This document shows positions 3,320-56,074 of a stretch of 64,000 nucleotides of DNA, piece by piece. A program made the position numbers and the translations under genes. Origin of the DNA: Candidatus Omnitrophota bacterium (GTDB lineage: Bacteria > Omnitrophota > Gorgyraeia > JAHIPI01). Where the stretch lies: positions 259-64,258 of the forward strand of contig JADHVZ010000007.1 in the NCBI GenBank assembly GCA_016783745.1, in the 5' to 3' direction. Under the pieces are notes generated by a model. It made no database searches, was not told the origin of the DNA, and saw only the letters and a program-made list of their open reading frames with translations. Position 1 is the stretch's first letter. Each line of letters opens with the position of its first letter.

Positions 3320-4700
3320 TTTTTCTGTTATAACAGGACTTTGTTAATTTTTCAGTTTTTTCTTAAACCGTTCTGATTTGATTTTATATAGCGAAGCAGC
3401 GATGTCCTTGTTCTTTGAAAGTAAAAACGCGGAATCAATGATAATGAGCGCCGAAACAGCCTGTTTGCATTGGCCGATTGTTTGAGGCGTTTCTTCCAGA
3501 ACCTTAGAGAGGTAACCGTTCTGCTTAATCAAGTAAGCAAGCGTCCATGTCAGGAATGACATAATCCAGTGTCTTTGGATTTGCTCCTGATGGCGAACCT
3601 GATATTGATCAAAACAGAAGGTATCTTTTAGCTCTCTAAAGGATTCTTCAATGCCCCAACGCAAGAGGTAAGTCATTATAACTGATCTGACAGACATTTT
3701 AAGATCGGTGGTTATGAGCACATGAACGGATTTATCGTCACTATCCGACCATTTGTTAAAGACAAAGATGACTTTAACAGGTGTTTTACAACCTTTGAGC
3801 TTGGAGTTAAAAGAATAAGTGAAAACGCTTTTGTCTTCACCTGTATTTTGAGGTATGCGGACAGCCTTTAATTTATGGGGATAAAATTGTCTAATCAAAG
3901 GTATGATTTCGTCGCAGCAGAGATATCTCCACTGCCTGGTCTGGGGATGGGTAAAGAAGACCGAACGGTTAATCTTAACTTCAGCCACCAAGGATATGTT
4001 CTTGGAGGAGACAAATTCTATTAAGTCTGTAGAGGTGTACCAGCTGTCAACGACTACAGAAGAGAAGGTAATATCTTTCTTTATGGCCTCATCGATAAGT
4101 TCTTTGGCAAGATCGAGTTTGCTTTTAAATTGTTTCGCTTCACAGGTATCAAGGGGCAGGTAAGGTGCTGAGCTTACAGGAAAGTGCTTGGTGTCTGAGA
4201 CGAAACAGCTGGCAACAGCAACATTACAATTTTCCTCTCTGCCTAAAGGAGCGCAGTATTGGAATTTGGCCCCTTCTGTATTTTTGGCATAAGGTTTTGG
4301 ACAGGCTGTATCGTCTATAGCGAGGACACCTTTGCTGCTGGATTTACTAGTTCTTTGCTTCTCTATGAGTTTTAAACGAATATCGTTTAGTTCATCGCAA
4401 TTCCAATTGGACTCCGAGAAGAAATATTGTAATTTTTGATAGGTGAGAGAGGTATTATTCGCGATAGCAGCCAGTGACATCCTTTTGTAATCTGCGAACA
4501 GCGCATAGATAAGCTCTCTGAATACCGACAATTGTGTCTTTGAAAAAACATGGTTGAAATGCACACTCTTCGCGCAATCGTCCGTTTTCACGCTTTAACG
4601 CTGCTATATCATCGTTCTTTCGACCACTTCCAGGGAATACAGTTTCGCCTTGCTCTTTGACCATATTTCTCCAAGTATGTAGGTCGTTTTCTTCGTAATT
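3320..4700 (-). mobile_element. IS701-family insertion sequence (boundaries approximate; terminal IRs not identified)
   Basis: Contains a single DDE transposase ORF. It sits directly next to the tRNA-Arg/palindrome locus. Confidence 0.4.
3344..4591 (-). CDS. IS701-family DDE transposase
   Basis: Motif LAIDDTACPKP...QYCAPLGREENCNVAV matches the IS701 signature (DDTgfpKkG...QYCGtlGKvaNCQVAV). The C-terminal WGIEESFRELK is the conserved E/K region of the IS4 superfamily. Confidence 0.8.
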   Translation of the reverse strand: MKTDDCAKSVHFNHVFSKTQLSVFRELIYALFADYKRMSLAAIANNTSLTYQKLQYFFSESNWNCDELNDIRLKLIEKQRTSKSSSKGVLAIDDTACPKPYAKNTEGAKFQYCAPLGREENCNVAVASCFVSDTKHFPVSSAPYLPLDTCEAKQFKSKLDLAKELIDEAIKKDITFSSVVVDSWYTSTDLIEFVSSKNISLVAEVKINRSVFFTHPQTRQWRYLCCDEIIPLIRQFYPHKLKAVRIPQNTGEDKSVFTYSFNSKLKGCKTPVKVIFVFNKWSDSDDKSVHVLITTDLKMSVRSVIMTYLLRWGIEESFRELKDTFCFDQYQVRHQEQIQRHWIMSFLTWTLAYLIKQNGYLSKVLEETPQTIGQCKQAVSALIIIDSAFLLSKNKDIAASLYKIKSERFKKKLKN

Positions 4701-4702
4701 AG

Positions 4703-4759
4703 TAATTAGGGACGGAGCCTAATTAGGGACGGAGCCTAATTAGGCTCCGTCCCTAATTA
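4703..4759. repeat. Perfect 40-bp palindrome TAATTAGGGACGGAGCCTAATTAGGCTCCGTCCCTAATTA plus one extra 17-bp left-arm copy (REP-like)
   Basis: Read directly from the sequence. The same palindrome recurs at 24150-24188. Here it lies immediately 3-prime of the tRNA-Arg on the minus strand, a terminator position. Confidence 0.9.
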
Positions 4760-4763
4760 AAAG

Positions 4764-4840
4764 TGGCGCGCCCGGGCCGATTCGAACGGCCAACCTGCTG
4801 ATTCGTAGTCAGTCACTCTATCCAATTGAGCTACGGGCGC
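4764..4840 (-). tRNA. tRNA-Arg (anticodon ACG)
   Basis: Reverse complement folds as a 77-nt cloverleaf: acceptor GCGCCCG/CGGGCGC, D-arm GCTC-AATTGGATA-GAGT, anticodon loop CTACGAA (U33, ACG, A37), T-arm GGCCG-TTCGAAT-CGGCC, discriminator G and an encoded CCA. There is one A·C mismatch at position 27-43. Confidence 0.85.
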
Positions 4841-5048
4841 AGATTATTCACTACGCTCGCCCTAGTGCCCCGAGGGGTACGGGCGCAGATTATTCACTAC
4901 GCTCGCCCTAGTGCCCCGAGGGGTACGGGCGCAGATTATTCACTACGCTCGCCCTAGTGCCCCGAGGGGTACGGGCGCTTTTTCTTCTCTGAAACTCCCA
5001 GTGCCCCGAGGGGTACGGGCGCAGATTATTCACTACGCTCGCCCTAGT
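4841..5048. repeat. Tandem array of a 46-bp unit AGATTATTCACTACGCTCGCCCTAGTGCCCCGAGGGGTACGGGCGC (3 perfect copies, 1 degenerate, 1 partial)
   Basis: Copies at 4841-4886, 4887-4932 and 4933-4978, a variant at 4979-5022 and a partial at 5023-5048. Each unit ends in TACGGGCGC, the reverse complement of the tRNA 5-prime nonamer GCGCCCGTA. Confidence 0.9.
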
Positions 5049-5360
5049 CTCTCCGAAGCTGAACGCGTAAGCAATTCAGCGAAGGAGGACGGGCGCGGAT
5101 TTGAATTCTTCCGGTATCAGGCCGCTTAATGAGCCGTGCGGCCTGAATGTATTATATTCCTTTCTCCAGTCTTCAATTGAGGTTTACTACATATTTTTTT
5201 AAGGATTGCTCATGATATTAGTGTTAATAATTATACCTGCTAATTATCAATTAATCAAGTTTAATGAAGTCGCTGATTTCTATTGAACAAAAAGTCCTTA
5301 AGTGGTAAAGTATTTATACTCATAAAATGTAAAAATCCACAAACAAGAAAGGAGTTTGTT

Positions 5361-6101
5361 GTGAAAAAAAGATATGTTATCATATCGATCGTCCTGGCTG
5401 TGAGCCTTTATTGCCTTATGCCTTCCCATGCCACCATCAATACGGAGTTACAGCCCTATATAGACTCTGTGGATCAGGTGCAGAAAGGCATGACTCTGTG
5501 GCAGCTGATCAAAACCGGCGGTTTTATAATGGTCGTACTGGGAGGCATGTCGATAGCCGCTATAGCGAGTATAATATTCAACTTTATGACATTGCAGAAA
5601 ACTAAACTTGCGCCGGATGATTTTACCGAGGATATCATGCAAAAGCTTTCCGGGAAAAAGCATAAAATAGCCGAAGAATTATGCAGATCACAAAACAATA
5701 TCATATCAAAGATCGTTCTTGCGGGCTTGAGCAAAAAGATAAAGGGCGCCGTGGTGGCGCGCGAGGCCGCTGAAACCTGCGCCAGGAAAGAAGTCGCCAA
5801 TCTCTGGCAAAACATCAGCTATCTCTCGGATATAGCGATGGTCTCCCCTATGATCGGACTGCTGGGGACAGTGCTCGGCATGATACAGGCATTCAACGTT
5901 ATCGCGTTTCAGACGGCCGTAGTCAAGCCCATGCTGCTGGCGGGCGGCGTATCCAAGGCTATGGTTACAACAGCCGGAGGCCTCATAGTCGCGATACCCG
6001 CTATGATCTTTTACTCCTATTTCAGAGGCAAGGTCCAGGAAATATCAAATGTGGTGGAGAGCCATTCTTCTGATATTCTAAAAATGATGGAAGAGGTGTG
6101 A
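5361..6101 (+). CDS. exbB: MotA/TolQ/ExbB-family proton channel
   Basis: C-terminal three-TM core MVSPMIGLLGTVLGMIQAF...AGGLIVAIPAMIFYSYF is typical of ExbB/TolQ. Likely start is GTG at 5361, 6 nt after GGAG, followed by a signal-like N-terminus. The ORF track starts earlier at 5283. Confidence 0.8.
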   Translation: MKKRYVIISIVLAVSLYCLMPSHATINTELQPYIDSVDQVQKGMTLWQLIKTGGFIMVVLGGMSIAAIASIIFNFMTLQKTKLAPDDFTEDIMQKLSGKKHKIAEELCRSQNNIISKIVLAGLSKKIKGAVVAREAAETCARKEVANLWQNISYLSDIAMVSPMIGLLGTVLGMIQAFNVIAFQTAVVKPMLLAGGVSKAMVTTAGGLIVAIPAMIFYSYFRGKVQEISNVVESHSSDILKMMEEV

Positions 6102-6102
6102 T

Positions 6103-6525
6103 ATGGCCGTTAATCTTAATATATCGGATTATCAAAAGCAGAAGCCCGCTGTCCAGATAGCCCCTCTTATAGATGTTGTATTCCTGACTTTGATATTCTT
6201 TATGGTGCTTTCGATATTCAATCAGCTGGAATCGGAAATAAGCATAAGTGTCCCTAAAGCGAAAGAATCGAAAGAGACCGTAAGGAGCCCGGGCGAAGTC
6301 ATCATAAACATCAAGAAAGACGGGACTGTCATCATCAATCAAAAAACTCTCTCGTTCGAGGGCTTAGACGAAATGCTTAAGAGGGTATCGACGCTTTTTC
6401 CTGACCAGCCGGTCATAATTCGCGCCGATGAAGAAACTTACCATAAATATGTGGTGAAAGTGCTTGATGCCTGCGCGAGAGCCAACATCTGGAACGTCTC
6501 TTTTGCGACGCTTAAAGAAGAATAG
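6103..6525 (+). CDS. exbD: ExbD/TolR biopolymer transport protein
   Basis: 140 aa with a single TM carrying APLIDVVFLTLIFFMV (conserved Asp) and a periplasmic domain. Translationally coupled to exbB. Confidence 0.8.
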   Translation: MAVNLNISDYQKQKPAVQIAPLIDVVFLTLIFFMVLSIFNQLESEISISVPKAKESKETVRSPGEVIINIKKDGTVIINQKTLSFEGLDEMLKRVSTLFPDQPVIIRADEETYHKYVVKVLDACARANIWNVSFATLKEE

Positions 6526-6537
6526 CGGTTACGGGAT

Positions 6538-8904
6538 ATGATTAAAGGAAAATTATTCGTAATAGTTCTGATTCTAATAGGCAGTATTCGGTTTTGTCTT
6601 GCCCAGTATGCCGCGCCCGAGACAGCTGCCCTTGAGCAGTTTGATTTCGCGACGGGGTTGTTCGAGCGCGGCATGTATAAAATGGCGGGCGATGAATATA
6701 AAAAGTTCATCGACGCCTTTGCCCAAAGCGAACATTTAAAAGACGCTTATTTCGGATTTGCTGAAAGTCTATATTTTCAGAAAAGCTATGATGAAGCATT
6801 GTACGAATACAACAAATACCTGGAACGTTTCTCTACGGCGGATAACCAGATGCTTGTCGTAAAGCTCAGGATCGGCGAGGTGTTTTTCTTTACAGAAAGG
6901 TTCGATGACGCCATAGCGCAGCTTGAATCACTTGAAAGGGAGGATTTCAGAAAAGACCAGATGCAAACTCTGTATTATTATCTGGCAAAGGCGTATAGAA
7001 GGAAAGGTGACGATGAAAAAGCCAGGCCTTATTTTAACAAAGCTGCGGAAATTATCGGCGATAACGAATACGCCTTTAATTCTCTCATCGAGCTCGGAGA
7101 TCTATATGCGGGAATGTCGGAATACGATAAAGCGTTAGAACAATACAGTAACGCCCACGAAAAATCAGACTCAGAAAAAACTAAAAGCTTTTCGCTTTAC
7201 AAGATAGCGGAGACGCAGTTCCTTGCCGGAGACTACCCTGCGTCCATAAACAGCTTTAAGCGGGTGTTATCGGACTATCCTGAAAATGAAATATACTCCG
7301 AGGCACTGAGCAACCTGCTTCTTTCGTTATTTAACACGGAAAAATACGAAGAGCTGATAAAGGAGTATGCCGACCGGCGGCATCTTATCAAAAATGAGGA
7401 TAAATTTTTCAATGTTCATTTTACCGCGTATTCCGCGTATACGGAGATCGGGGATCATGAAAAAGCGCTGTCCGGGCTCGATGGCCTTCTCTCATCCGGA
7501 TGGGTCAGTCAGAAAAATAAAGACAGGGCCGCTTTAAAGAAAAGTGAGATCTTTTTGTCGGCAAAACGCTTCGATGAGGCTATTAAGGAAATCGACGCTC
7601 ACCTCTCAAGTGAAGATGATTATGCCGATAATATCATATTCATCAAGGGAGAGGCGCTTTATGGCGCGGGTGATTTTGAGGGAGCTGCAGCGCAGTTCAA
7701 TAAACTCATAGATGAACACCCCGGCTCCCCATTTGCCATAGATGCCATCTATAGCCTGGCATATGTCCAGAAAAATATGGAACAAAACAAGAGCGCCAGA
7801 GACTCCTTTATGAAATATTACGAAAGATCCAAAGATGGGACAAAGAGCCAGGCGGCGTTGTACAACGCGATCTTGCTTGACTTAAAAGATGAAGAGCTTG
7901 GAAAAGCTGTCAAGGACTGTAAGCTGTATCTATCTACATTCGAGCATGGTAAATACAGAGAAAAGATATTATTCACTCTCGGCTCGGTCTATTCACAGAT
8001 AAAAGATTACGGTAACGCTATCCATATGTATAAAGAGTTCATAGAGGTGTATAAAGGCGGCCCCAAATTGCAGGACGCCTATTTTCGAATTGCTTACGGC
8101 CTTCAGATGTCCGATAAATATGATGAAGCGGTAGAGCATTACGATAAGCTGGAAAAGGATATGAATATAGGTGGGCTTTATTACGCCGCTTTAAAAAACA
8201 AAGTACTGATATATTTTGCTAAAGAAAATAAAAGTAAAGCCGCGGAGGTCTATGATCATATTATAAGCGACTTCCCCGGAAATGACTTAGGCATAGAAGG
8301 GCATTTCTGGCTCGCTAAATACTATTTAGAATGCAGTCGCTTTAAGGATGCTATACGCATATTAGAAAAAACCGGGGCCAGGCCTGACGCCAAAGGCAAC
8401 GAAAAGCAAATAGCGTATTTTAAAGCAGAGGCCTATAAAGAGACAGAAGATTTCAGTAAAGCAATAGAAAATTACGACATAGTCTTCTCTTACGGCGATC
8501 AAGGCGATGTCTATTCAGGCGCTTCACGCATAGGCAAAGGGTTGTGCCTTATAGAGACCGGAGAATATGATAAGGCCAAAGAAGAATTTGATAAAGCAAT
8601 ACTTGAAAATCCGGATGACGATACGATCGTTATGCGGGCTAAATTCGAGATAGCCGGCATTGAACAACTTAAAGGGAATATGGAACAAGCGTATAAGCTT
8701 TATATGATGGTCGCCATACTCTATGATAATGATGAATACAGCCCCAGGTCGCTTTTGAAAGCAGCCGACATATTTCAGGATCTTAAAAAGTTCGCAGAAG
8801 CCAAAAAGGCATACCGGGAGATCATAGACAAATACGGAGAGACCGAGTTCGCCCGCGACGCAAGAAATAGACTACAAGGCATAAGATGGAAATTAAACGA
8901 TTAG
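6538..8904 (+). CDS. Secreted tetratricopeptide-repeat (TPR) protein, 788 aa
   Basis: Signal peptide followed by about 15 TPR-like repeats (AxxYxLA...P patterns throughout). Confidence 0.75.
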   Translation: MIKGKLFVIVLILIGSIRFCLAQYAAPETAALEQFDFATGLFERGMYKMAGDEYKKFIDAFAQSEHLKDAYFGFAESLYFQKSYDEALYEYNKYLERFSTADNQMLVVKLRIGEVFFFTERFDDAIAQLESLEREDFRKDQMQTLYYYLAKAYRRKGDDEKARPYFNKAAEIIGDNEYAFNSLIELGDLYAGMSEYDKALEQYSNAHEKSDSEKTKSFSLYKIAETQFLAGDYPASINSFKRVLSDYPENEIYSEALSNLLLSLFNTEKYEELIKEYADRRHLIKNEDKFFNVHFTAYSAYTEIGDHEKALSGLDGLLSSGWVSQKNKDRAALKKSEIFLSAKRFDEAIKEIDAHLSSEDDYADNIIFIKGEALYGAGDFEGAAAQFNKLIDEHPGSPFAIDAIYSLAYVQKNMEQNKSARDSFMKYYERSKDGTKSQAALYNAILLDLKDEELGKAVKDCKLYLSTFEHGKYREKILFTLGSVYSQIKDYGNAIHMYKEFIEVYKGGPKLQDAYFRIAYGLQMSDKYDEAVEHYDKLEKDMNIGGLYYAALKNKVLIYFAKENKSKAAEVYDHIISDFPGNDLGIEGHFWLAKYYLECSRFKDAIRILEKTGARPDAKGNEKQIAYFKAEAYKETEDFSKAIENYDIVFSYGDQGDVYSGASRIGKGLCLIETGEYDKAKEEFDKAILENPDDDTIVMRAKFEIAGIEQLKGNMEQAYKLYMMVAILYDNDEYSPRSLLKAADIFQDLKKFAEAKKAYREIIDKYGETEFARDARNRLQGIRWKLND

Positions 8905-10583
8905 CTTCAGATATATTTAATCGCCTCGGAAACGGCATAAAAGAAAATACCGTGATATTCGCGGCCGTTGTCTCAATTATTCTTCATATGGTGTTTTTTG
9001 TTTACTCGTCTATTGTGGTGCTGCCCGGTATCCGGAGTGAAATAGAAAGATCGAAAGCTATATTCAATATAAAAACTGTGGAGAAAAAACCTGTTGTCAA
9101 AAGAAAAAAGCCGCCTCAAAGCACAAAAACAACATATTTGCAAAAAATTAAATTTGAAAGTCCTGCCCTGCCCACCGGAGCATCATTGAGCGCCGCAGAT
9201 GAAAAAATCGAAAAAGACGGTTTCAGCAAAGAGGCGCAAAAAATCAGCAAGCCTGTATCCATAGAGCAGCTGAAGGATCTGGGGGACCTTGAAAAGGAAA
9301 AAAGGCGTGAACATCTGGCAAAAAAAGGCCAGCGTAAGACAAAAAAAGATATCGTTGAGGTAGATAGGGGCATATTAGACACCGCGGCGGGGCCTGAGGA
9401 CCTGCTTGAAGCCGACTTTTCTGAAGAATTTTTTGAGGAAATGCCCGGTTTCACCCCGAAGTCTGTCGGCGGGATCATGCAGGACCTAAAACGCGGCATA
9501 CTTTCCAGGTTTGGCATCAGCGAGACTTCACCGATCAGGAGAAAAGGCGCATTCTCCGGATTGGAAGAATATCTGGTGTATAATCTTGCCGCATACAGCG
9601 ACCCTGAAAACGGTAAGAAATATTACAAGATCACCATCCATGCGGGAAAGGATGTCGGCCGGCTGAAGCGGATGCCTAAAGAAATCGTATTCTTAATAGA
9701 TTGCTCTCTCAGTATACAAAAAGAACGGCTGGAAGAGTTTAAGGAAGGGCTGCTTTACGCCTTAAAAAATCTAAACCCCGATGACGTATTTAACATAATG
9801 GCATTTAAAGAGACCGTATCATGGTTCAGGGGTGATCCTGTAAAGCCGGATCCGGAGATCATTAAAGAAGCTATGGCTTTTGTCGAAGCCCTAAGCGCCG
9901 GTGAAGGCACTGATGCCTATAAAGCCCTTCTGGAAGCCATACAAAAGGAGGCCTCCATCACCCCCTCATACATCGTGATTTTCAGCGACGGGCGCCCTAC
10001 GTACGGTATAACGGATTCAAGAAAAATCATAAACAAGATCTCCATGACGAATAAAGGCGAAAGGCCCATCTTCGTTTTGAGCGGCGGGTTAAGAGTAAAC
10101 AGGTATTTTCTTGACTTTATTTCATATAAAAACAGGGGCTGGGCAGAATACGCTCAGCGTTCACATCAGGTTGCGGGACACATATCGAAGATGTATGAAA
10201 AAATAAAAGATCCCGTATTCCTGAACCTGAGATACAGGGTAAACGGTTTAAACGTAGACGAGATCTTCCCCAAGACACTACCCGATTTCTACCGGCACGC
10301 TGAATTTAATATTTACGGTGCCTATGAAGATGAGGATGAGTTTTCGCTTCAGTTGTTAGGGGACATAGAAAACGAAGTGAATGAGTTTATCGTAGTGGAC
10401 TCACTTAAAGGCGCCGCTCTAGGCGGGGAAAACATAGCCAGGGAGTGGGCGTTTAATAAGATATATCACCTGATAGGAATACTGGAACACGACAGCAATA
10501 ACAAGGAGATCATCGAAGAAATAAATACCCTTTGCGATAAATTCGGTATAAAAACCCCTTATTCTGACGAGATCAAAAAATAA
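8886..10583 (+). CDS. Membrane-anchored von Willebrand factor A (VWA) domain protein
   Basis: N-terminal TM, a Lys/Pro-rich linker (KKPVVKRKKPPQ), then a VWA domain with MIDAS DxSxS (IVFLIDCSLSI ... IVIFSDGRPTYG). Its start overlaps the TPR gene by 19 nt. Confidence 0.75.
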   Translation: MEIKRLASDIFNRLGNGIKENTVIFAAVVSIILHMVFFVYSSIVVLPGIRSEIERSKAIFNIKTVEKKPVVKRKKPPQSTKTTYLQKIKFESPALPTGASLSAADEKIEKDGFSKEAQKISKPVSIEQLKDLGDLEKEKRREHLAKKGQRKTKKDIVEVDRGILDTAAGPEDLLEADFSEEFFEEMPGFTPKSVGGIMQDLKRGILSRFGISETSPIRRKGAFSGLEEYLVYNLAAYSDPENGKKYYKITIHAGKDVGRLKRMPKEIVFLIDCSLSIQKERLEEFKEGLLYALKNLNPDDVFNIMAFKETVSWFRGDPVKPDPEIIKEAMAFVEALSAGEGTDAYKALLEAIQKEASITPSYIVIFSDGRPTYGITDSRKIINKISMTNKGERPIFVLSGGLRVNRYFLDFISYKNRGWAEYAQRSHQVAGHISKMYEKIKDPVFLNLRYRVNGLNVDEIFPKTLPDFYRHAEFNIYGAYEDEDEFSLQLLGDIENEVNEFIVVDSLKGAALGGENIAREWAFNKIYHLIGILEHDSNNKEIIEEINTLCDKFGIKTPYSDEIKK

Positions 10584-10636
10584 AAAATCCCGGGCATATC
10601 CTGCCGGGGATCTGATTCATGTATATAAAAACCTTA

Positions 10637-11092
10637 CTATACTTGCGCCATCTTCATCTGCTCTCTATTGCCTACAAATTCGAGTACCCTGCTTAAGTCT
10701 TCCTGTTCCGCAGCTCCGAATCTGAGGCCCGAGTCAGTGCCGCGCTTCCATACGATATTGCCCTGCATAAAAACAGATTGACGGTTGAACGGTAATTCGA
10801 CTTCGAGTGAGACAATGGTATTTATATCTATACTATTAAGGAAAAGCCGCACCCCGCCCCTGCTAATATCCTTTATCCATGATATGCCCTCCTCAGCTGG
10901 TGTCTTATATTTTGTTCTTAGCAGGGCCTGATAACGCGGGAATATTCTTTTCTCCTTTATAAAAAACTTTTTTTTCCTACTAAACAAACTGCTTGGACTC
11001 GGGAGGCTTTCTCTGTACCTCGATACCATCAAGGCTATTGCCAGAGAGAGTAATGTTAAACTCCCTATTAGCAAATGCATTTCAACGTCCAC
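10637..11092 (-). CDS. PilZ-domain (c-di-GMP-binding) protein with N-terminal TM segment
   Basis: RxxxR-like segment (FPRYQALLRTKY) and the D-x-S-x-x-G motif (DISRGGV) characteristic of PilZ. Confidence 0.6.
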   Translation of the reverse strand: MDVEMHLLIGSLTLLSLAIALMVSRYRESLPSPSSLFSRKKKFFIKEKRIFPRYQALLRTKYKTPAEEGISWIKDISRGGVRLFLNSIDINTIVSLEVELPFNRQSVFMQGNIVWKRGTDSGLRFGAAEQEDLSRVLEFVGNREQMKMAQV

Positions 11093-11299
11093 TTTGAGCC
11101 CCCCTTTTTAGCAAATAATGGACTAAATTATTTGATTCTTTTTTTTCGCGCTGATATTAAGAGTTTAGTTCTCTTAACGTCAAATTCATGATAACACAAA
11201 ACAAGCATTAAGTCAAATAAAATAATGTCTTTTTGAGTGTGAAAGTATTATAACTAACTTTCTTATATTCTAACTAAAAACTTAGCTTACTTTTTGAAT

Positions 11300-11614
11300 T
11301 TAGTCTTTTATCTCTACTTTAAGACCTCCGAACAGCGCCGCGAAAAAATTATATAAAAGCGCAAATATAGATAATCCAAGCGCCGCGCTTAAGCCGTAGA
11401 GAATACCAAAAACTATCCCCGCGAAAATACCCGGGCGTATCCTGGCCATAAACGGAAAAACGCGCGCGATCTCCAATGATACTATATCTATTCTAAATAT
11501 ACTTCCGAACAGGCCTATGACCAGCCCGATAAGCAAAAATGTGCCCCCAAAAAACCTGAATATACTTACAATGTCAACGCGTCTGACTTCAAGCATCTTT
11601 AACTCTTTCATCAT
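11300..11614 (-). CDS. Small hydrophobic membrane protein, function unknown
   Basis: 104 aa, three predicted TM helices, no recognisable motif. Confidence 0.35.
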   Translation of the reverse strand: MMKELKMLEVRRVDIVSIFRFFGGTFLLIGLVIGLFGSIFRIDIVSLEIARVFPFMARIRPGIFAGIVFGILYGLSAALGLSIFALLYNFFAALFGGLKVEIKD

Positions 11615-11635
11615 CGCCTCCTAAATAAAGTTATA

Positions 11636-12490
11636 TTATACTTTGCTATGTACGTCTTCTTCGGTCCGCTCTCTTTCAAGCGCCCTGATCAGCGGATACA
11701 ATTTCTCCCCGATGAAAAAAGGCCCCTTTGCCAACTCTTCCACTACATGCGCCAGCATCGCAGATGTCCTTGAAAGCAAAAATAGCCCGGTTCCATGCTC
11801 CTTTGTGAATCCAAGAGCAAGCAATATCGCGGAATTAATACCGTCTATATTCGGATATAACCCCTTTTCCTTTTTAGCGGTCTCAGCCACCACATCGTAT
11901 ATTTCAATAAACTCATTTGAATAATTTAAGTCTCTGAGCAGACCTCTAAGTTTTTCGGGTCTTGGATCCTTCTTAAAAAGCGGATGGCCGTATCCATAGA
12001 GCGTTTTCTTTTCGTCAAAAATGATCTTTGTGTATTTTTCGACATGTTCCCTGACCGGCATATCTTCTTTTCTCGAGTTTTTTATTTCACCATAGATCGC
12101 CATCGCGCTTTCAATAGCGCCTACATGATACTTCCCTCCACCGGCATAACCGGCGGATAGCGCATGAGCAACAGGTGTACCGGTTGTGGCTGAAAGGCGG
12201 GCTAATAGCACCGTAGGCGGGCTATACCCGAATCCTCCGTGAAAACTGACAAGAACCGCGTCAAATATTCTGCGCTCGGTCTCAGTCGGCCGCCTGCTCA
12301 GCAATATATGAAAGATGGCTTCGCTGAACGAAAAATCACCTATAAGATCGTTGATATCCTTTCCCCTGACGTATAATCTTTCTTTCAAGAGGTCCGGGCC
12401 GTCAATATCCGTAGTTTTATCATACCTCATATGCTGGATAAACCTCTTCAGCATCTTCCAAAATTTTATCTCCCTGCTTACTCCGATCAT
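11636..12490 (-). CDS. Short-form citrate synthase family protein (citryl-CoA lyase-like)
   Basis: LYGYGHPLFKKDPRPEKL matches the citrate synthase GFGHRVYKxxDPRA motif, and PNIDGINSAILLALGF matches PNVDFYSG. At 284 aa it corresponds to the C-terminal catalytic half only, as in citryl-CoA lyase. Confidence 0.55.
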   Translation of the reverse strand: MIGVSREIKFWKMLKRFIQHMRYDKTTDIDGPDLLKERLYVRGKDINDLIGDFSFSEAIFHILLSRRPTETERRIFDAVLVSFHGGFGYSPPTVLLARLSATTGTPVAHALSAGYAGGGKYHVGAIESAMAIYGEIKNSRKEDMPVREHVEKYTKIIFDEKKTLYGYGHPLFKKDPRPEKLRGLLRDLNYSNEFIEIYDVVAETAKKEKGLYPNIDGINSAILLALGFTKEHGTGLFLLSRTSAMLAHVVEELAKGPFFIGEKLYPLIRALERERTEEDVHSKV

Positions 12491-12528
12491 AACACCCTCC
12501 TCTATAAATAGGCTTACGTCAGGACATT

Positions 12529-13746
12529 CTACTGCGGGCTCCCCCTGCGTTTCAGCGTTTTTCTCCTATCTATCGCCTTGGCCCTTTTATGCTCGGCTTC
12601 ATAAACCACGATAATCTTTGATATTGAGCCGGTTTTTCTGCCAAGATCTTCAAAATATTCCTTTATATGAACTATCTCATGCTTGGATAGGGGCTTGATA
12701 CCGCACGGCCGTAAAGGCGTATTGATCTGTATCTCATCCGGCCTTATTTCAAACGCCAGTTCGGCAAGCTTTTTATACTCATCTTTATTCATCTCGGCGA
12801 ACATTATCTGAAGCGCAAGCTTAGTATCATGTTCGCTTCTAAATGCCTTTATCCCCTCCAGCAAATCACTAAGTCTTATACCATCCGCTGGGGCGTTTAT
12901 CTTCTCAAAACACTCCTGAGTCGCCGCATCCAGCTTGACCATTACCAGATCCGCTAAAGCCAGGTCATCCCTTACGGACTTATCCCGCATCAGAGATGAA
13001 TTTGTAATAACGGCTATCTTTTCTCTCCTTAATTCTCTTATTTTCCTGATGATCTCGCCGAAATTCCTTGCCAAAGTAGGTTCTCCCCTGCCGGAGAATG
13101 TTATGTGGTCTATAGACAAACCGGCGGGTAATGACTTGATCTCCTTGATGACTTTTTCAGTGGGAACATATACCTTTCTCTCTACTGTCTTAATAGGCGT
13201 ACTTCCTATCTGGCAATAAACGCAGTCAAAGACACATATCTTTTCCTCTTGAGAAAGCAGGTCTACCCCGAGAGAACTGCCAAGCCGCCAACTCGGCACC
13301 GGCCCGTAGATATAATCATAAAGGGGACGTTTCACTTGCTCGCAACCTCTTTCCGCGCAATAAGTTACGCTAGTACACTTTTGCTGATCTTTTACGCATG
13401 CCGGACAGGTAATAAACACGTATTTCAACATACCCGCCCCTGTATTCTTTACATCGTGAAGCGTGTCCGGCGGAACGTACAGCGCTGTGTCTTTCGCAAA
13501 CTCCTGGATCCGGACCTTTTCCGGAGTTCCTCCGGACGATTTTATATAAAGTTCACCTTTCCCCTCAAGGATTATAAGGATCTCCTCAAAATCGCCTGTA
13601 TTATGTTCTCCTATGCCCTCACCGGCCTTTAAGACTACATGCCCTGAGCGAAAAGAGGCGGCATTTCCTTCTTTAGCGCTGAAAAGCCGTTTATACTTCT
13701 CTTCCGAATCCAGTCCTATAATACCCGGACATAATCCATTCTTCAT
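12529..13746 (-). CDS. Cupin-domain / radical SAM fusion protein
   Basis: N-terminal cupin segment GHVVLKAGEGIGEHNTGDFEEILIILEGKGELYI. Central CxxxCxxC radical-SAM cluster motif CVFDCVYCQ preceded by GPVPSWRLGSSLG (COG0731-like Fe-S oxidoreductase). Confidence 0.65.
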   Translation of the reverse strand: MKNGLCPGIIGLDSEEKYKRLFSAKEGNAASFRSGHVVLKAGEGIGEHNTGDFEEILIILEGKGELYIKSSGGTPEKVRIQEFAKDTALYVPPDTLHDVKNTGAGMLKYVFITCPACVKDQQKCTSVTYCAERGCEQVKRPLYDYIYGPVPSWRLGSSLGVDLLSQEEKICVFDCVYCQIGSTPIKTVERKVYVPTEKVIKEIKSLPAGLSIDHITFSGRGEPTLARNFGEIIRKIRELRREKIAVITNSSLMRDKSVRDDLALADLVMVKLDAATQECFEKINAPADGIRLSDLLEGIKAFRSEHDTKLALQIMFAEMNKDEYKKLAELAFEIRPDEIQINTPLRPCGIKPLSKHEIVHIKEYFEDLGRKTGSISKIIVVYEAEHKRAKAIDRRKTLKRRGSPQ

Positions 13747-14708
13747 AAATACGTTCTTCCCTTCAAGAAACCCGCGTATTCCCTTACGCCGTCTTCCAAG
13801 CCATAGAATTCCTTTTTATATCCGGCGTTTCTCAACTTAGAGATCTCCGCTTCGGTAAAATACTGGTATTTAGCCTTCAAATTTTCGGGCATATCGAAAT
13901 ATTCGATAACAGGTTCCATGCCCAGGGCATTGAACAAGGCCTTTGCCAGATCATTCCAGGTCCGCGCCTTCCCTGTCCCAATATTGTAAATGCCCCCCTT
14001 ACCGCGATTTTCAAAAAAATAGTAAGTAGCTTCCACCGCGTCTTTGACATAAATAAAATCTCTCTTCTGGCCGCCGTTTTTATATTCGCTGTCATATGAT
14101 TTAAAGAGCCTTATCTTTTTATCCTTTACCGCTTTGTCAAAAGATTTCGCTATGACGCTCATCATGTCTTTTTTATGGTATTCGTTAGGGCCGAATACAT
14201 TAAAATATTTCAAGCCGACGATTTTATCCGCTATACCTTCATTTATGGCCCATAAGTCCACGGCCTGTTTTGAACGGCCGTAGGGATTCAGGGGCTTGAG
14301 CTTTAAGGTGACTTCATCGCCGTCGCTGAACCCAAAGGAACCGTCTCCGTAAGTAGCTCCGGAACTTGCGTAAATAAAACGGATATCATTTGATAGTGAA
14401 TATACGGCGAGTTTTTTAGAATATTCGACGTTATTCTTTACAAAATAAGCCTCATCCATGACTGTAGTCGATGAACAGGCCCCCAGATGGAATATAGCGT
14501 CCGCCTTTTTACCCAGCTTATTAGACGCTATGAGGGACAGTAATTTTTCCTTATCAAGAAGATCGTTGAATTTCTTACCTTTTAAATTCTTCTCTTTTTC
14601 AGGGGATACCGGTTCGTCAACGACTATTATGTCGCTTATCCCTTCTCTATTCAGCTTCCATAGAAGACAGCTGCCTATAAAACCGGCCCCGCCGGTCACT
14701 ATTACCAT
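13743..14708 (-). CDS. hldD: ADP-L-glycero-D-manno-heptose 6-epimerase
   Basis: Extended collinear similarity to E. coli HldD/RfaD: IVTGGAGFIGS, HLGACSSTT, YASSGATYG, PLNPYGRSK, YFNVFGPNE, KRDFIYVKD, NIGTG, YQYFTEA. Start is taken at the second ATG (14708), which has a GGAG RBS. Confidence 0.85.
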   Translation of the reverse strand: MVIVTGGAGFIGSCLLWKLNREGISDIIVVDEPVSPEKEKNLKGKKFNDLLDKEKLLSLIASNKLGKKADAIFHLGACSSTTVMDEAYFVKNNVEYSKKLAVYSLSNDIRFIYASSGATYGDGSFGFSDGDEVTLKLKPLNPYGRSKQAVDLWAINEGIADKIVGLKYFNVFGPNEYHKKDMMSVIAKSFDKAVKDKKIRLFKSYDSEYKNGGQKRDFIYVKDAVEATYYFFENRGKGGIYNIGTGKARTWNDLAKALFNALGMEPVIEYFDMPENLKAKYQYFTEAEISKLRNAGYKKEFYGLEDGVREYAGFLKGRTYL

Positions 14709-14724
14709 GTTCGACTCCATGAGG

Positions 14725-15651
14725 TTATTTTTTATCTAAATGTACTCTAGCTGATGTCAGTGCGACAGTAGCAATGATATCATCAACGCTGCAGCCCCTT
14801 GAGAGATCACTGCAAGGTGTCTTAAGGCCTACCAAAGTCGGGCCCATTGCCCTGGCATTTCCAAGGCGTTCTACCGCCTTATACGTTATATTCGCCGCAT
14901 CCAGGTTCGGAAAGATCAAAATATTGGCCTTTCCTTTCAATGGACTATCGGGCGCTTTGAACTTTTGAACATCCGGTATGATGGCCGCGTCAAATTGAAG
15001 CTCTCCGTCTACAAGAAGGTCCGGCCTTTTCTCTTTTATTATTGTCACGGCATTTTTGACTCTGTCTATAGATTCGCCCTCCGCGCTTCCCGACGTAGAA
15101 TATGTAAGAAGCGCGATCCTCGCGTCCAGCTTAAATAACGCGGTCAACAAATCCGCGCTTGATATCGCTATCCTGGATAACTGTCTTGATGAAGGCATAG
15201 GAATTACGGCGCAATCGGCAAAGGCAAAAAAACCGTTTTCCCCGTTAGGGCGATTTTCGGCCTCTATAAAAAACGCTCCGAATATCGCTCCTACGCTACG
15301 GTCTCTCCCCAGGCACTGCATGGCAGCTATTATCACATCCTTACTCGTATGGGCGGCGCCGGCCACGAAACTATCCGCTTCTCCAAGCCGCACCATCATC
15401 GCCGCGGCATATAAAGGATTATCTAAGGCCTTACCGGCAGCCTCAACCGTCATACCCTTATTTTTCTGAAGCTCATAGTATGCCTGCACCAGTTTTTTCT
15501 TATCTGCTTTCCCGGTAGAGATAAGATGGGCTATGCCTTCCTTTTCGATACGCCTCGCGGCTTCGGCAACCCTTTCATCCTCGATCTCAGGAAGCACGAT
15601 TCTTTTTGGATATTTCTTCGCTCTCTCTATTAAAGATTCTATTCTACCCAT
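14725..15651 (-). CDS. pta: Phosphate acetyl/butyryl-transferase (Pta/Ptb family, short form)
   Basis: 308 aa with the fold-typical layout: N-terminal IVLPEGEDERV-like segment (RIVLPEIEDERV) and C-terminal GPTLVGLKTPCSDLSRG. Confidence 0.7.
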   Translation of the reverse strand: MGRIESLIERAKKYPKRIVLPEIEDERVAEAARRIEKEGIAHLISTGKADKKKLVQAYYELQKNKGMTVEAAGKALDNPLYAAAMMVRLGEADSFVAGAAHTSKDVIIAAMQCLGRDRSVGAIFGAFFIEAENRPNGENGFFAFADCAVIPMPSSRQLSRIAISSADLLTALFKLDARIALLTYSTSGSAEGESIDRVKNAVTIIKEKRPDLLVDGELQFDAAIIPDVQKFKAPDSPLKGKANILIFPNLDAANITYKAVERLGNARAMGPTLVGLKTPCSDLSRGCSVDDIIATVALTSARVHLDKK

Positions 15652-16295
15652 ATATCTTTTTCAAACACGGATGAGATCGCTTGTTTTATATCATCCGGTT
15701 TTGCTTTTATGTTAGTCAAAAAATCCCGGTGGCCGCGCCCCATCCTATATGGCGGCTCCTTTTTGGGCATTTTTATATATTTCTCGATTCTTTCTATTGG
15801 AAAATCATAAAGTATTGTACCGTGGTGGAGTAAGTATTTTTTCCTGCGGGCCTGGGCGTTTCCTGAAAACTTCTTTCCATTAAAAGCGATATCGGAAAGC
15901 GGCTCAAATGTAGCCTTCACGCCTGATCCGCCCAGAGAGTCGCAGATATTATTTAAAATATATCCGTAAGATTTTCTTATATTCTTTAGCAGCGGATCAC
16001 GTTCATATGAAAGTATGAGCGAATAATTCAGGCAGCCCGGCCCCTGTAACACTGTGCCGCCTGCCGATATCCTTCTTAATATTTCAATATTATCCTTCCG
16101 GGCTTCTTTAGTATTTACACTTTCTTCGAGTTTTGAGATCCTGCCTAATACTATAAAAAATGTCTCCGGCTCCCAGAACCTTAAAACCTCGCCGGAAAAA
16201 TCAGCCTCGGCCGATTCAAGAAGGATCTGGTCATATGCTACGTTTTCAAGTGCATTAGGGAAAGATATGTCTTTGATCAACATGTGTAACTGCAA
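15639..16295 (-). CDS. Lipoate-protein ligase / octanoyltransferase family protein (BPL/LPL catalytic domain)
   Basis: 218-aa BPL_LplA_LipB-type catalytic domain with conserved core RRISAGGTVLQGPGCLNYSLIL. Located immediately downstream of gcvPB, consistent with a role in lipoylating GcvH. Confidence 0.6.
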   Translation of the reverse strand: MQLHMLIKDISFPNALENVAYDQILLESAEADFSGEVLRFWEPETFFIVLGRISKLEESVNTKEARKDNIEILRRISAGGTVLQGPGCLNYSLILSYERDPLLKNIRKSYGYILNNICDSLGGSGVKATFEPLSDIAFNGKKFSGNAQARRKKYLLHHGTILYDFPIERIEKYIKMPKKEPPYRMGRGHRDFLTNIKAKPDDIKQAISSVFEKDIWVE

Positions 16296-17725
16296 TTAAG
16301 TTCGCGTGCGGCCTTTGCCTCATCAAGCCTTGATACCGGCATTTCAGCAGGAGCGCTTTTTAAGGCCTCCGGATCGCTCTCAGCAAGCCCTGCCGCCTCA
16401 AGCATGATCTTTATAAATAAGTCGAGCGTCTCTTTTGATTCTGTCTCGGTCGGCTCTACCATCATCGCTTCCTTCACTATAAGCGGAAAATACACCGTGG
16501 GAGGATGTATTCCCTTGTCCATCAGAAATTTTGCTATGTCTAAAGCATGTACACCGTGCTTAAGCTGTTTTGAGGCGGAAAGCACAAACTCGTGCATGCA
16601 TATTCTATCATAAGGGAGGCTGTAAACGCCTTTAAGGCGCGCAAGGCAATAGTTAGCGTTTAAGACAGCGCCCTCGCCTACTTTTATCAATCCGTCTTTC
16701 CCTAAAAGAAGTGTATACGCGTATGCCTTAAGTATTACGCCGTAATTTCCGTAAAAAGGCGCTATCCTGCCGATCGATCTCGGCTTATTTTCGTCAAGCG
16801 CAAATGTGCCGTCTTTTTTCTTTACGACTTTCGGTACAGGTAAAAACTCCGCAAGTTTATTATTGACGCCTACAGGCCCGGCTCCCGGCCCTCCCCCTCC
16901 GTGAGGGGTGCTGAATGTCTTGTGTAAATTAAGATGCGCAACGTCAAACCCGATGTCCCCCGGGCGGCATTTTCCTATCATGCCGTTCAGATTGGCTCCG
17001 TCATAATACATGAGGGCGTCCACCTGATGAGCCAGATCCGCGACTTCTTGAATTTTTGTATTGAAGATCCCGAGCGTGTTCGGGCATGTAAGCATTACGG
17101 CGGCAACTTCATCCGTAAGTTTAGACTTATACACTTCCATATCCATACAGCCGTCATCTGCCGTAGGAATAGAAATAAGTTCATAACCGGCTATCGCGGC
17201 GCTGGCAGGGTTTGTCCCGTGTGAAGAATCAGGGACTATTACGTACTTTTTCTTATTTCCCTTGCTCTTATGGTAGGCGGCAATGAGCATTACTCCGGTG
17301 AGTTCGCCGTGCGCGCCGGCAAGCGGCTCAGTAGTCACCTCTTTCATGCCTGTGATCTCGGCAAGGATCTGCTCCAGGCCATACAAGACTTCCAACGCGC
17401 CCTGGACCAGGCTTGACGCGGAACCGATCTGCGGCATCAGCGGATGAAGTTCCGTAAACCCCGGAAGCCTTGCCACGTCCTCCGTAAACTTAGGATTATA
17501 TTTCATCGTGCAGGAACCGAGCGGGTAGTAGTTGGTATCTACGGAGTAATTCATCCGGGAAAGCCGGGTAAAATGCCTCACAAGATCAAGTTCGGATACT
17601 TCCGGTAAAAGCGCTGGTTCTTTTCTCAGATATTTCGAGTCCAGATCCGCGGCCCTCGGGACATCCGAGTCCGGCAACTTTATCCCTTTTCTTCCCTTTA
17701 CGCTCTTTTCGAATATTAATCTCAT
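16277..17725 (-). CDS. gcvPB: Glycine dehydrogenase (decarboxylating) subunit 2
   Basis: 482 aa, PLP-dependent, with a SxHKT-type lysine region (HLNLHKTFSTPHGGGGPG), typical of GcvPB. Confidence 0.9.
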   Translation of the reverse strand: MRLIFEKSVKGRKGIKLPDSDVPRAADLDSKYLRKEPALLPEVSELDLVRHFTRLSRMNYSVDTNYYPLGSCTMKYNPKFTEDVARLPGFTELHPLMPQIGSASSLVQGALEVLYGLEQILAEITGMKEVTTEPLAGAHGELTGVMLIAAYHKSKGNKKKYVIVPDSSHGTNPASAAIAGYELISIPTADDGCMDMEVYKSKLTDEVAAVMLTCPNTLGIFNTKIQEVADLAHQVDALMYYDGANLNGMIGKCRPGDIGFDVAHLNLHKTFSTPHGGGGPGAGPVGVNNKLAEFLPVPKVVKKKDGTFALDENKPRSIGRIAPFYGNYGVILKAYAYTLLLGKDGLIKVGEGAVLNANYCLARLKGVYSLPYDRICMHEFVLSASKQLKHGVHALDIAKFLMDKGIHPPTVYFPLIVKEAMMVEPTETESKETLDLFIKIMLEAAGLAESDPEALKSAPAEMPVSRLDEAKAARELNCSYTC

Positions 17726-23540: not shown

Positions 23541-23564
23541 CCTGTAATTGCTTAAAGAGCCGGT

Positions 23565-24119
23565 TTAGCGTCTAAAATGCCCAAGAATTTTCGCTTCGCC
23601 TAATACGTGGCCATTAATAGCCTGTAGAAGCTCTTTCTTAGTCAGCCCCGACTCCAGATCAAGCATAGCATCGAGAGCATATAACTTAAAATAATACCTA
23701 TGCGGGCCTCCGGGTGGAGGACAAGGCCCACCGTAGCCGATCTTCCTAAAATCGGTCATCCCCTGCTTTGCCCCATTGGAAAGCGCCTCATCAGCCGGCA
23801 CATCTTCCGGCAATTCAATAACACCGGCAGGAATATCGTATACCACCCAGTGCACCCATGTCATACCCGGCGCGTCAGGATCATCACATATTAGCGCGAA
23901 ACTCTGTGTTCCGTCAGGAATTTCACTCCAACTCAACTGAGGAGATACATCAGCGCCGCTGCATGTATACTTCGCGTCTATTATATCTCCGTCTTTAAAG
24001 GCCGCGCTTTTTAATTCCAAAGCCATAACTTCACCTCCCGCGAATATTAAACAACCCACTATTAATAATGCGATAAACTTTATCTTCATATGCCCACCTC
24101 CTATTCTCGATTCTATCAT
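23565..24119 (-). CDS. YbhB/YbcL-family (PEBP/Raf-kinase-inhibitor-like) secreted protein
   Basis: Signal peptide, then CDDPDAPGMTWVHWVVYDIP ... GYGGPCPPPGGPHRYYFKLYALD, the hallmark of bacterial PEBP proteins. Confidence 0.75.
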   Translation of the reverse strand: MIESRIGGGHMKIKFIALLIVGCLIFAGGEVMALELKSAAFKDGDIIDAKYTCSGADVSPQLSWSEIPDGTQSFALICDDPDAPGMTWVHWVVYDIPAGVIELPEDVPADEALSNGAKQGMTDFRKIGYGGPCPPPGGPHRYYFKLYALDAMLDLESGLTKKELLQAINGHVLGEAKILGHFRR

Positions 24120-24149
24120 ATTACCACTGTATTAACAATTATAATTAGT

Positions 24150-24188
24150 ATAATTAGGGACGGAGCCTAATTAGGCTCCGTCCCTAAT
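24150..24188. repeat. Second copy of the 40-bp palindrome TAATTAGGGACGGAGCCTAATTAGGCTCCGTCCCTAATT (REP-like)
   Basis: Identical to 4720-4759 except for the last base. Located just 3-prime of the 1676-aa gene (minus strand) in a terminator position. Confidence 0.9.
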
Positions 24189-24190
24189 TC

Positions 24191-39233: not shown

Positions 39234-39798
39234 TAGCTATGACGACACCGGCTATGATCAATTCCTGTTTGGGCATTATGGTAGGGTATTTCCGGTTGGC
39301 TGACTTTAAGACGGCGATCTTTCCCCTTTTCTCAAAATACTTGAGCGTCCATTCACCGTCTACCTGCGCCACTACGATATCCCCTGTCTTCGGGGCGATA
39401 TTTCTCTGGGTGAGAATAAGGTCTCCGGGATGGATCCCCGCGTCTATCATGGAATCACCGTCTACCTTTAATATATAGGTAGCCTGCGGATTAGATATGA
39501 GATACTCATCCAGGCTCATCGTATCCACAAGTTCCTCTTCAGCCGGGCTGGGAAAGCCTGCCGCGATGACCCCCAGGACCCTTGTAGGCTTAAGCAGCCT
39601 TCCCGGCACTATCCTGCCTTTAGAGTCCTTATCGAGAAAACCTTCCCTGACCAGGGAAAGTACTCTTTTGAAGACGGCATTCTTGGACCTGAGGCGGAAT
39701 AATTTCAGCATCTCCGAATACGACGGCATCCTCTTATGGTCGGAATAGAATAAATTTATCTCTTTAGCCTGCCTGATAAGATCCTTCCTGTCTCTCAT
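39214..39798 (-). CDS. lexA: LexA repressor (S24 peptidase)
   Basis: N-terminal wHTH and C-terminal S24 domain with GDSM (Ser nucleophile) and a downstream Lys region. Start is placed at MRDRKD because the upstream 12 codons of the track ORF are the operator/promoter. Confidence 0.8.
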   Translation of the reverse strand: MRDRKDLIRQAKEINLFYSDHKRMPSYSEMLKLFRLRSKNAVFKRVLSLVREGFLDKDSKGRIVPGRLLKPTRVLGVIAAGFPSPAEEELVDTMSLDEYLISNPQATYILKVDGDSMIDAGIHPGDLILTQRNIAPKTGDIVVAQVDGEWTLKYFEKRGKIAVLKSANRKYPTIMPKQELIIAGVVIANVRKYR

Positions 39799-39804
39799 GG
39801 TATA

Positions 39805-39834
39805 TAGTATAGTGAACAATCGTTCACTTGTCAA
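39805..39834 (-). promoter_or_regulatory. lexA promoter with SOS (Cheo-type) box GTGAACGATTGTTCAC filling the -35/-10 spacer
   Basis: Minus-strand reading: TTGACA-AGTGAACGATTGTTCAC-TATACT-atatacc-ATG. The box is a perfect GAAC-N4-GTTC palindrome and the leader is only about 7 nt. Confidence 0.6.
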
Positions 39835-51663: not shown

Positions 51664-51692
51664 TTGACAACAATGATTTTTTATTGTATACT
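51664..51692 (+). promoter_or_regulatory. sigma70 promoter TTGACA-N17-TATACT for the hsdM operon
   Basis: TTGACA at 51664-51669, 17-nt spacer and TATACT at 51687-51692. A GGAG RBS lies at 51733, before the ATG at 51744. Confidence 0.5.
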
Positions 51693-51743
51693 TCTGTATC
51701 GGCAGCAGGAATAGTAATTCATACAATACACAGGAGAACAATC

Positions 51744-53231: not shown

Positions 53232-53234
53232 AAT

Positions 53235-54861: not shown

Positions 54862-54863
54862 CC

Positions 54864-56072: not shown

Positions 56073-56074
56073 TT

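Follow-up and report, generated by a model that had tools for sequence, protein, structure and literature searches.

We analysed a 64,000-nucleotide stretch of a contig (JADHVZ010000007.1; hereafter the window) of a Candidatus Omnitrophota metagenome-assembled genome, in which four contiguous genes on the + strand, at 5361-10583, encode an ExbB-like protein, an ExbD-like protein, a secreted tetratricopeptide repeat (TPR) protein and a membrane-anchored VWA protein. The first gene (5361-6101, GTG start) encodes 246 aa with similarity to ExbB/TolQ, the pentameric subunit of 5:2 motors (Pfam MotA_ExbB, 6.6e-29), and the second (6103-6525) encodes a 140-aa protein resembling ExbD/TolR, the dimeric motor subunit (Pfam ExbD, 7.1e-29). 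They are followed by the gene of an all-alpha TPR solenoid of 788 aa (6538-8904; Pfam TPR families, e.g. TPR_2 at 4.6e-35) and by that of a 565-aa VWA protein with a TonB/TolA-like anchor, which we regard as a putative force transducer (8886-10583; Pfam VWA_3, 8.2e-13). The first three genes are separated by gaps of 1 nt (6102) and 12 nt (6526-6537), and the last two overlap by 19 nt (8886-8904), exactly as an earlier reading of the bare sequence, the first-pass annotation, had described. The longest open reading frame (ORF) for the ExbB-like gene opens at a TTG at 5283; we place the start at 5361 because an orthologue (locus L005) begins with MRKRF at the equivalent position. A Shine-Dalgarno-like aaggag, read from the sequence, lies 6 nt before this GTG (5349-5354, + strand).

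As the first-pass annotation had proposed, the co-occurrence of the four genes was mapped across genomes. One genome per GTDB species was scanned and 80 loci were fetched, and synteny was counted in the 57 loci that have at least 3.7 kb of upstream DNA. The order ExbB-ExbD-TPR-VWA is kept, on one strand, in 54 of these 57 loci, with protein identities of 33-75% to the proteins described here; one of the 54 belongs to a Hydrogenedentes metagenome-assembled genome (MAG; L083). Median intergenic distances in the orthologous clusters are 7, 7.5 and -6 nt. The VWA protein is 100% identical to the NCBI entry 'VWA domain-containing protein [Candidatus Omnitrophica bacterium]'. More than 120 homologues of full length are 35-75% identical to it, and those that carry a name come nearly all from Omnitrophota. 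A profile search of 1.84 billion representatives of 50%-identity clusters returned at least 150 matches to this protein with E <= 1e-87, mostly 540-610 aa long. Genes flanking the cluster vary among loci, which suggests that the four genes form a self-contained operon; near-universal presence in Omnitrophota combined with variable flanks leads us to favour a core role in the envelope rather than an accessory role. None of the four proteins matched any PADLOC model of anti-phage defence, such as the MotAB-like Zorya system.

Sequence homology places the first two proteins in the ExbB/TolQ and ExbD/TolR families of motor subunits, respectively. The ExbB-like protein has a signal-peptide-like segment at its N-terminus, and its pore threonines of TM2 and TM3, T170 and T204, align with T145 and T178 of TolQ (PDB 8odt), being conserved in 56 and 57 of the 57 orthologues. 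D24 of the ExbD-like protein, kept in 56 of 57, aligns with the proton-binding residue D25 in the transmembrane (TM) helix of E. coli ExbD. The position of the TM3 glutamate (TolQ E173, ExbB E176) is occupied in the ExbB-like protein by K199, and Lys is found there in 55 of 57 orthologues. Glu is retained in the canonical ExbB2 of another Omnitrophota genome (L019, described below) and in the ExbB of a vWA-like cluster from Planctomycetota, so Lys199 is specific to the Omnitrophota family. As a mark of all vWA-linked motors it was rejected, given the Glu of the Planctomycetota cluster and a Gln in the L086 locus.

Apart from its head, the fourth protein resembles TonB and TolA in layout. Its N-terminal TM helix (aa 22-43, containing VVSIILHMVFF; 8949-9014, + strand) was modelled as a helix by AlphaFold2 (AF2) with pLDDT 80-90, and orthologue alignments identify within it the pair S30-x3-H34 (+ strand codons 8973-8975 and 8985-8987). 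Two alignments were used, of 28 and 73 orthologues: H34 is present in 28 of 28 sequences in the first and in 68 of 69 in the second, and position 30 is Ser in 54 of 64 orthologues and Ala in 10. S-x3-H recurs in homologues from other lineages, as SLGLH in L084 and SIGAH in L086; L089 has AIAIH. The spacing is that of the SHLS signature, the motor-binding motif of TonB (S16/H20) and TolA (S18/H22, ISAVLH) (PMC12204202). At 25 residues past H34 lies an amphipathic, strand-like motif, I-F-N-I-K-T-V (aa 59-65; 9060-9080, + strand), which conforms to FxhKxh, or F60-x-[LVI]-K-x-[VLI], with F60 in 65 of 73 orthologues, alternating hydrophobic positions 62 and 65, and K63. Both its position and its pattern agree with those that the 'motor box' has in the TolA and TonB sequences of the supplement to PMC12204202.

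Beyond the TM helix, a disordered and putatively periplasm-spanning linker (aa 60-222; 9063-9551, + strand) was modelled with pLDDT values under 50 at aa 60-184 and again at aa 195-222. The first-pass annotation had correctly seen an N-terminal TM helix followed by a linker, yet its description of the latter as Lys/Pro-rich does not hold, as the composition is 15% K, 10% E and 6% P, hence Lys/Glu-rich. Within the linker, a linear motif M-P-G-F-T-P (aa 186-191; 9441-9458, + strand; local pLDDT ~50) is kept in 55-60 of 73 orthologues. Together with the synteny, the ExbD Asp and the ExbB Thr residues, the S-x3-H helix argues, at the level of sequence, for the earlier proposal that an ExbBD-type motor is coupled to an anchored VWA protein in the place of TonB or TolA.

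The C-terminal part of the VWA protein forms a folded head (aa 223-565; 9552-10580, + strand; AF2 pLDDT 80-97), in which the model shows two leading strands, the VWA domain (aa 266-440), a beta-sandwich (aa 443-506) and a helical tail. Pfam VWA_3, VWA_2 and VWA match at aa 266-400. The metal ion-dependent adhesion site (MIDAS) is present: D272xS274xS276 (9699-9713, + strand), T342 and D368 are conserved in 72-73 of 73 orthologues. The top Foldseek match of the head is ITIH1 (6fpy; E 1.2e-23, 358 columns, 21% identity), followed by ArnB, VWA domains of the Sec23/24 type and the beta I domains of integrins. BatB was matched over the VWA core only; BatB and a second Bat-related VWA structure are the entries 3ibs and 4jdu. 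TIGR03788, which describes VIT-VWA sortase targets, scored 127 bits on aa 236-560, far under its cut-off of 552 bits. ITIH1 and VIT-VWA proteins have in common with aa 223-565 a MIDAS-bearing VWA domain flanked by beta and helical elements; they differ in that no complete VIT domain was detected here and in that the Omnitrophota protein has an N-terminal membrane anchor, whereas they are secreted or sortase-linked.

Such a head bears directly on whether the protein could be an ordinary TonB that has merely diverged and still powers TonB-dependent transporters. The N-terminal TM helix with S-x3-H, the extended linker and the position beside exbBD are what this explanation would predict. However, neither TonB_C (PF03544) nor TolA domain III (PF06519) was found in the VWA protein by Pfam, and a custom hidden Markov model (HMM) built from the C-terminal domains of TolA and TonB, when run over 1.19 Mb of sequence, had a single match, the TonB of L019, and none in the VWA protein. 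With an ITIH1-like VWA fold at the C-terminus and no TonB-dependent transporter in the window, an ordinary TonB is effectively refuted; the C-terminus gave no match of the kind that, according to the first-pass annotation, would have made the protein an ordinary divergent TonB.

The window contains no TonB_C, TolA, TolB, Pal or TonB-dependent transporter among its 40 other annotated ORFs of at least 150 aa. The earlier 'no TonB' is therefore accurate for the operon and for these 64 kb, but cannot be asserted genome-wide, because a related genome has a canonical TonB: in L019 (Omnitrophota MAG OFTM38), the VWA gene is followed at 9947-16378 by a complete set of TonB-dependent transporter (with Plug and barrel domains), ExbB, ExbD, TonB (TonB_C, 81 bits), BtuF-like protein, FecCD and ABC ATPase. 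The coexistence of both systems in L019 marks the VWA module as a separate, paralogous system rather than a decayed Ton system or one that shares its motor, and shows that Omnitrophota can have conventional Ton import. TonB_C proteins in some Omnitrophota have also been reported in one of three literature sources on the phylum (PMC10066038; bioRxiv 10.1101/2023.11.21.568195; 10.64898/2026.06.07.730766), none of which mentions ExbB, TolQ or VWA. Compared with the Ton system, the Omnitrophota module thus has the same motor families, the ExbD Asp and ExbB Thr residues, an S-x3-H anchor on the third component and a long linker, but lacks TonB_C and an associated TonB-dependent transporter and has Lys in place of the TM3 Glu of ExbB.

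The third gene encodes the 788-aa secreted TPR protein that the first-pass annotation placed after exbD; Pfam detects its TPR array, and a Sec-type signal peptide was recognised by eye and is also present in 61 orthologues, with a lipobox in only 2. AF2 predicts a solenoid of 42 helices forming ~20 hairpins (pLDDT 90), with conservation highest at both ends of the protein (aa 36-54, DFAxGLxxRxxY, and aa 718-766). Foldseek returned only generic long TPR scaffolds with TM-scores of at most 0.3; a periplasmic scaffold of the Campylobacter flagellar motor (9hmf) is among them, which we treat as an analogy and not as evidence. TIGR02795, the YbgF-type TPR model, matches six stretches with 179 bits, and its cut-off is passed only as the sum of the six. 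Remote homologues of the TPR protein adjoin ExbB/ExbD genes in Bacteroidota, Ignavibacteriales and Planctomycetota, for which reason large YbgF-type TPR proteins look, from these sequences, like recurrent partners of the ExbB/ExbD motor family. The homologue is accompanied by TonB-like and outer-membrane protein (OMP)-like proteins in Bacteroidota and Ignavibacteriales, where the cluster (L087, 7001-14630; L088, 7001-15282) encodes in turn a TPR protein (~1,000 aa), an OMP-like protein (~535 aa), one intervening protein, ExbB, ExbD and a TonB-like protein, and may be another uncharacterised motor module. The intervening protein of L088 is a SPOR protein, of the septal peptidoglycan-binding type. 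In Planctomycetota the order is a 416-aa protein, TPR, TPR, ExbB, ExbD and ExbD, and the 416-aa protein combines an AIAIH TM helix with a vWA-like DxTxT...D pattern.

The TPR protein and the motor scores raise the question of whether the module is a Tol-Pal analogue that serves cell division and outer-membrane stabilisation, with the VWA protein in the role of TolA, the TPR protein in that of CpoB, and the head engaging a septal outer-membrane lipoprotein or OMP. The NCBIfam models lean this way: the ExbB-like protein scored 92 bits for TolQ (cut-off 221) and 55 bits for ExbB (cut-off 206), and the ExbD-like protein 61 bits for TolR (cut-off 127) and 38 bits for ExbD (cut-off 123), so that the Tol models score higher although all values are far under the equivalog cut-offs. 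The six matches of the YbgF/CpoB TPR model, the near-universal cluster with its variable, housekeeping-like flanks, and the SPOR protein in the related TPR-ExbB-ExbD-TonB cluster of Ignavibacteriales point in the same direction. On the other hand, sequence searches against the PDB gave no clear Tol preference and placed the ExbD-like protein nearer to ExbD than to TolR, and TolB and Pal/OmpA_C are absent from the window and from the annotated flanks of the cluster in related loci. The N-terminal coiled-coil trimerisation domain of CpoB (PF16331) had no match in the TPR protein. CpoB is also much smaller, with ~260 aa made up of a coiled coil and a single C-terminal TPR triplet, compared with 788 aa and ~20 hairpins here. 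The module therefore resembles Tol-Pal in its TolQ/TolR-like scores, its TolA-like TM helix (ISAVLH in TolA, VVSIILH here) and the YbgF-type repeats of the neighbouring periplasmic protein, but differs in lacking TolA domain III, TolB and Pal. We consider a Tol-like role possible, though somewhat unlikely.

The closest described relatives are the 'vWA force transducers', a class put forward on in-silico grounds (Williams-Jones, Webby, Bray, Maiden, Kleanthous, Szczepaniak, Mol Biol Evol 2025; PMC12204202) for Kiritimatiellota and other members of the PVC (Planctomycetes-Verrucomicrobia-Chlamydiae) bacteria and seeded on Tichowtungia aerotolerans (Kiritimatiellota). Members of this class carry the SHLS His in their TM helix and a motor box in their disordered linker, have a vWA C-terminal domain, are syntenic with tolQ-like, tolR-like and TPR genes, and were speculated to have a gliding-related role. 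The study does not report the class from Omnitrophota, and the genome that it lists as 'Omnitrophica' belongs to Hinthialibacteria and has a canonical tol-pal locus. The Omnitrophota protein shares the His-bearing single TM helix, the disordered linker, the vWA domain in place of TonB_C and the synteny with tolQ-like, tolR-like and TPR genes. It differs in its length of ~565 aa, its intact MIDAS, its ITIH-like extension, its single ExbD, the gene order motor-TPR-vWA and the Lys at the TM3 Glu position of its ExbB, whereas the Tichowtungia seed proteins are 474-476 aa long, have a MIDAS that is degenerate (DADKR), and form a pair of paralogues encoded alongside two TolR-like genes (PMC12204202). 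BLASTP found similarity between the two in the TM region only (24/81, E 0.018), and hhalign gave a weak match on part of the vWA domain (probability 23%). Since similarity beyond the TM helix is weak, we rejected orthology with the Tichowtungia transducer. Judged by these sequence features, the Omnitrophota version is a sequence-distinct, phylum-wide form of the proposed class.

Taken together, the module is best explained as a self-contained envelope force-transduction system that is driven by the proton-motive force (PMF) and runs parallel to Ton and Tol. We think it probable that a TonB-like arm transmits the pull of a PMF-driven 5:2 motor to a ligand bound to the MIDAS head, with the periplasmic TPR scaffold assisting. 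By analogy with the cryo-electron microscopy (cryo-EM) structures of the TonB and TolA complexes (cited in PMC12204202), the ExbB-like and ExbD-like proteins would assemble into a 5:2 proton-driven motor in the inner membrane. On the same analogy, the VWA protein would use its S30-x3-H34 TM helix to dock against the outer face of the ExbB pentamer, and the FxhKxh strand behind this helix could engage the periplasmic domain of ExbD. The disordered linker of ~160 residues would then traverse the periplasm, so that the ITIH1/integrin-like VWA head might capture a ligand through the metal ion of its intact MIDAS and motor activity would pull on the bound ligand. The secreted solenoid of 20 TPR hairpins may act as a periplasmic scaffold or adaptor, perhaps by binding the MPGFTP motif of the linker or the target.

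Several observations weigh against this reading. The conserved TM3 Glu of TolQ and ExbB is exchanged for Lys in the ExbB-like protein. An hhalign comparison with the TolA N-termini from the supplement of PMC12204202 puts Ser and His in register, which supports the reading without deciding it, but over 19 columns only (E 0.0034, probability 9.6%); the S-x3-H assignment rests on conservation and not on statistics. No conserved outer-membrane partner gene was found near the cluster, and a scan for promoters and terminators gave counts at the level of shuffled sequence and was uninformative. Moreover, motor linkage is not obligatory for the VWA family, since two verrucomicrobial homologues (L084, 7311-9101; L085, 10001-11773), which have 23% identity and SLGLH in the TM helix, adjoin genes for a Tsp/S41 tail-specific protease and polysaccharide export and not ExbBD.

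These verrucomicrobial genes also favour a reading in which the VWA and TPR proteins are not coupled to the motor at all, but are Bat-like or otherwise independent periplasmic proteins that merely share a transcript with an ExbBD pair working for a TonB encoded elsewhere. The Foldseek matches to BatB and Bat-related VWA structures and the TonB_C proteins of some Omnitrophota fit such a scenario as well. Like the module described here, the Bat operon encodes a membrane-anchored VWA protein beside a TPR protein (BatA/BatB and BatC, respectively), and the VWA cores superpose (3ibs, 4jdu); unlike it, Bat has no ExbBD motor. None of the four proteins or their neighbours had a Pfam match to BatA_N, MoxR ATPase, DUF58 or BatD/E, which agrees with the first-pass view that this is not a Bat operon. 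Furthermore, an invariant TM His preceded by Ser at -4 would be difficult to account for in the absence of a motor contact, the canonical TonB of L019 brings its own ExbB and ExbD, and the genes are tightly syntenic and overlap. For these reasons, an uncoupled arrangement seems improbable, and we retain the motor-coupled one.

Within the motor reading, a role apart from cell division can also be envisaged. In a device for host attachment or predation, the motorised VWA head would supply the energy to adhere, or to display or secrete surface proteins, giant ones among them, by analogy with the Agl-Glt machinery and its adhesin CglB. The Myxococcus system likewise couples a TolQR-type motor (AglRQS) and the TonB-like GltG/J to a VWA adhesin, CglB, and includes TPR proteins; there, however, CglB is a separate outer-membrane lipoprotein in a machine of at least 17 proteins, whereas the present four-gene module unites VWA domain and TonB-like anchor in one protein. 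Such a device would suit heads of the ITIH/integrin VWA-MIDAS type, which are adhesion modules, and the gliding-related role speculated on for the vWA transducers (PMC12204202), as well as a giant gene found directly upstream of the cluster on the same strand in one Omnitrophota sub-clade. This adjacency is clade-specific, however, and the window has a tRNA and a transposase gene upstream instead. A linker of ~160 residues on an inner-membrane anchor would reach the outer membrane but is unlikely to extend further, and no secretin, type II secretion system, Tad or outer-membrane component is conserved near the cluster. We regard this role as unlikely, more so than the Tol-like one; both are sub-hypotheses of the motor reading and are not separable here.

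Between these two in likelihood stands a broader and still doubtful proposal, that of a 'motorised integrin'. Under it, the module would be a phylum-wide third PMF-driven machine with a charge-inverted (Glu->Lys) ExbB channel, in which a MIDAS-headed, TonB-like arm, served by the TPR scaffold, pulls on an outer-membrane or host-contact ligand and fulfils a function apart from Ton and Tol, for example in epibiotic attachment or predation. Omnitrophota are a largely uncultured phylum of ultra-small, host-dependent (epibiotic) bacteria. To our knowledge, Ton and Tol have long been treated as the sole trans-envelope systems powered by ExbBD/TolQR. A third, VWA-headed class has been proposed in silico only. 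The sequence-distinct form described here spans a whole phylum, has its metal-dependent adhesion site intact and, in at least one genome, occurs beside a canonical Ton system, which adds weight to the view that 5:2 motors drive more processes of the envelope than those now known. The module also offers concrete signatures that can be mutated: H34 and F60, MPGFTP, the residues of the MIDAS, and K199 of ExbB.

The giant gene lies directly upstream of exbB, on the same strand, in seven loci (L001, L003, L040, L044, L052, L053 and L059). Its product measures 2,000 aa or more, reaching 6,460 aa in L001, with AprA_N, WHD_AprA and Methyltransf_36 as precomputed Pfam annotations; the C-terminal parts of the giant proteins had zero Pfam matches. 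In a further locus (L062), the giant gene is followed directly by the TPR and VWA genes, with no exbBD. Linkage to a giant gene is real in the one sub-clade only and was rejected as a general trait of the cluster.

Upstream of the cluster in the window, a tRNA-Arg(ACG) gene lies at 4764-4840 on the - strand. Its 5' end is abutted by 4.8 tandem copies of a 46-nt unit (4832-5048; TACGGGCGCAGATTATTCACTACGCTCGCCCTAGTGCCCCGAGGGG), and in each copy the opening 9 nt are complementary to those at the start of the tRNA; the array may represent either a duplication resembling an attachment site or an artefact of the assembly. Just past the 3' end of the tRNA, at 4703-4760, a 17-nt direct repeat (2.5 copies) is followed by an inverted copy (taattagggacggagcc / ggctccgtccctaatta). 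Because these repeats adjoin a DDE_5/DDE_Tnp_1 transposase gene (3344-4591, - strand), an insertion sequence element has probably inserted beside the tRNA. On the other side, just downstream of the VWA gene and convergent with it, lies a gene for a PilZ-domain protein (10637-11092, - strand), which is not conserved in related loci.

Further features of the window lie at a greater distance from the cluster. Two large putative surface proteins are encoded on the - strand at 20880-29221, one of 1,676 aa with seven PKD domains, a GH2-like TIM barrel and CBM11, and the other of 886 aa with CarboxypepD_reg and beta-helix domains. At 37917-39834 (- strand), the gene for an S24 peptidase (LexA/UmuD-like) overlaps that of a Y-family polymerase (IMS), forming a pair of the SOS-mutagenesis type. 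Finally, a type I restriction-modification locus at 51684-58555 contains hsdM, two unannotated ORFs, hsdS and hsdR.

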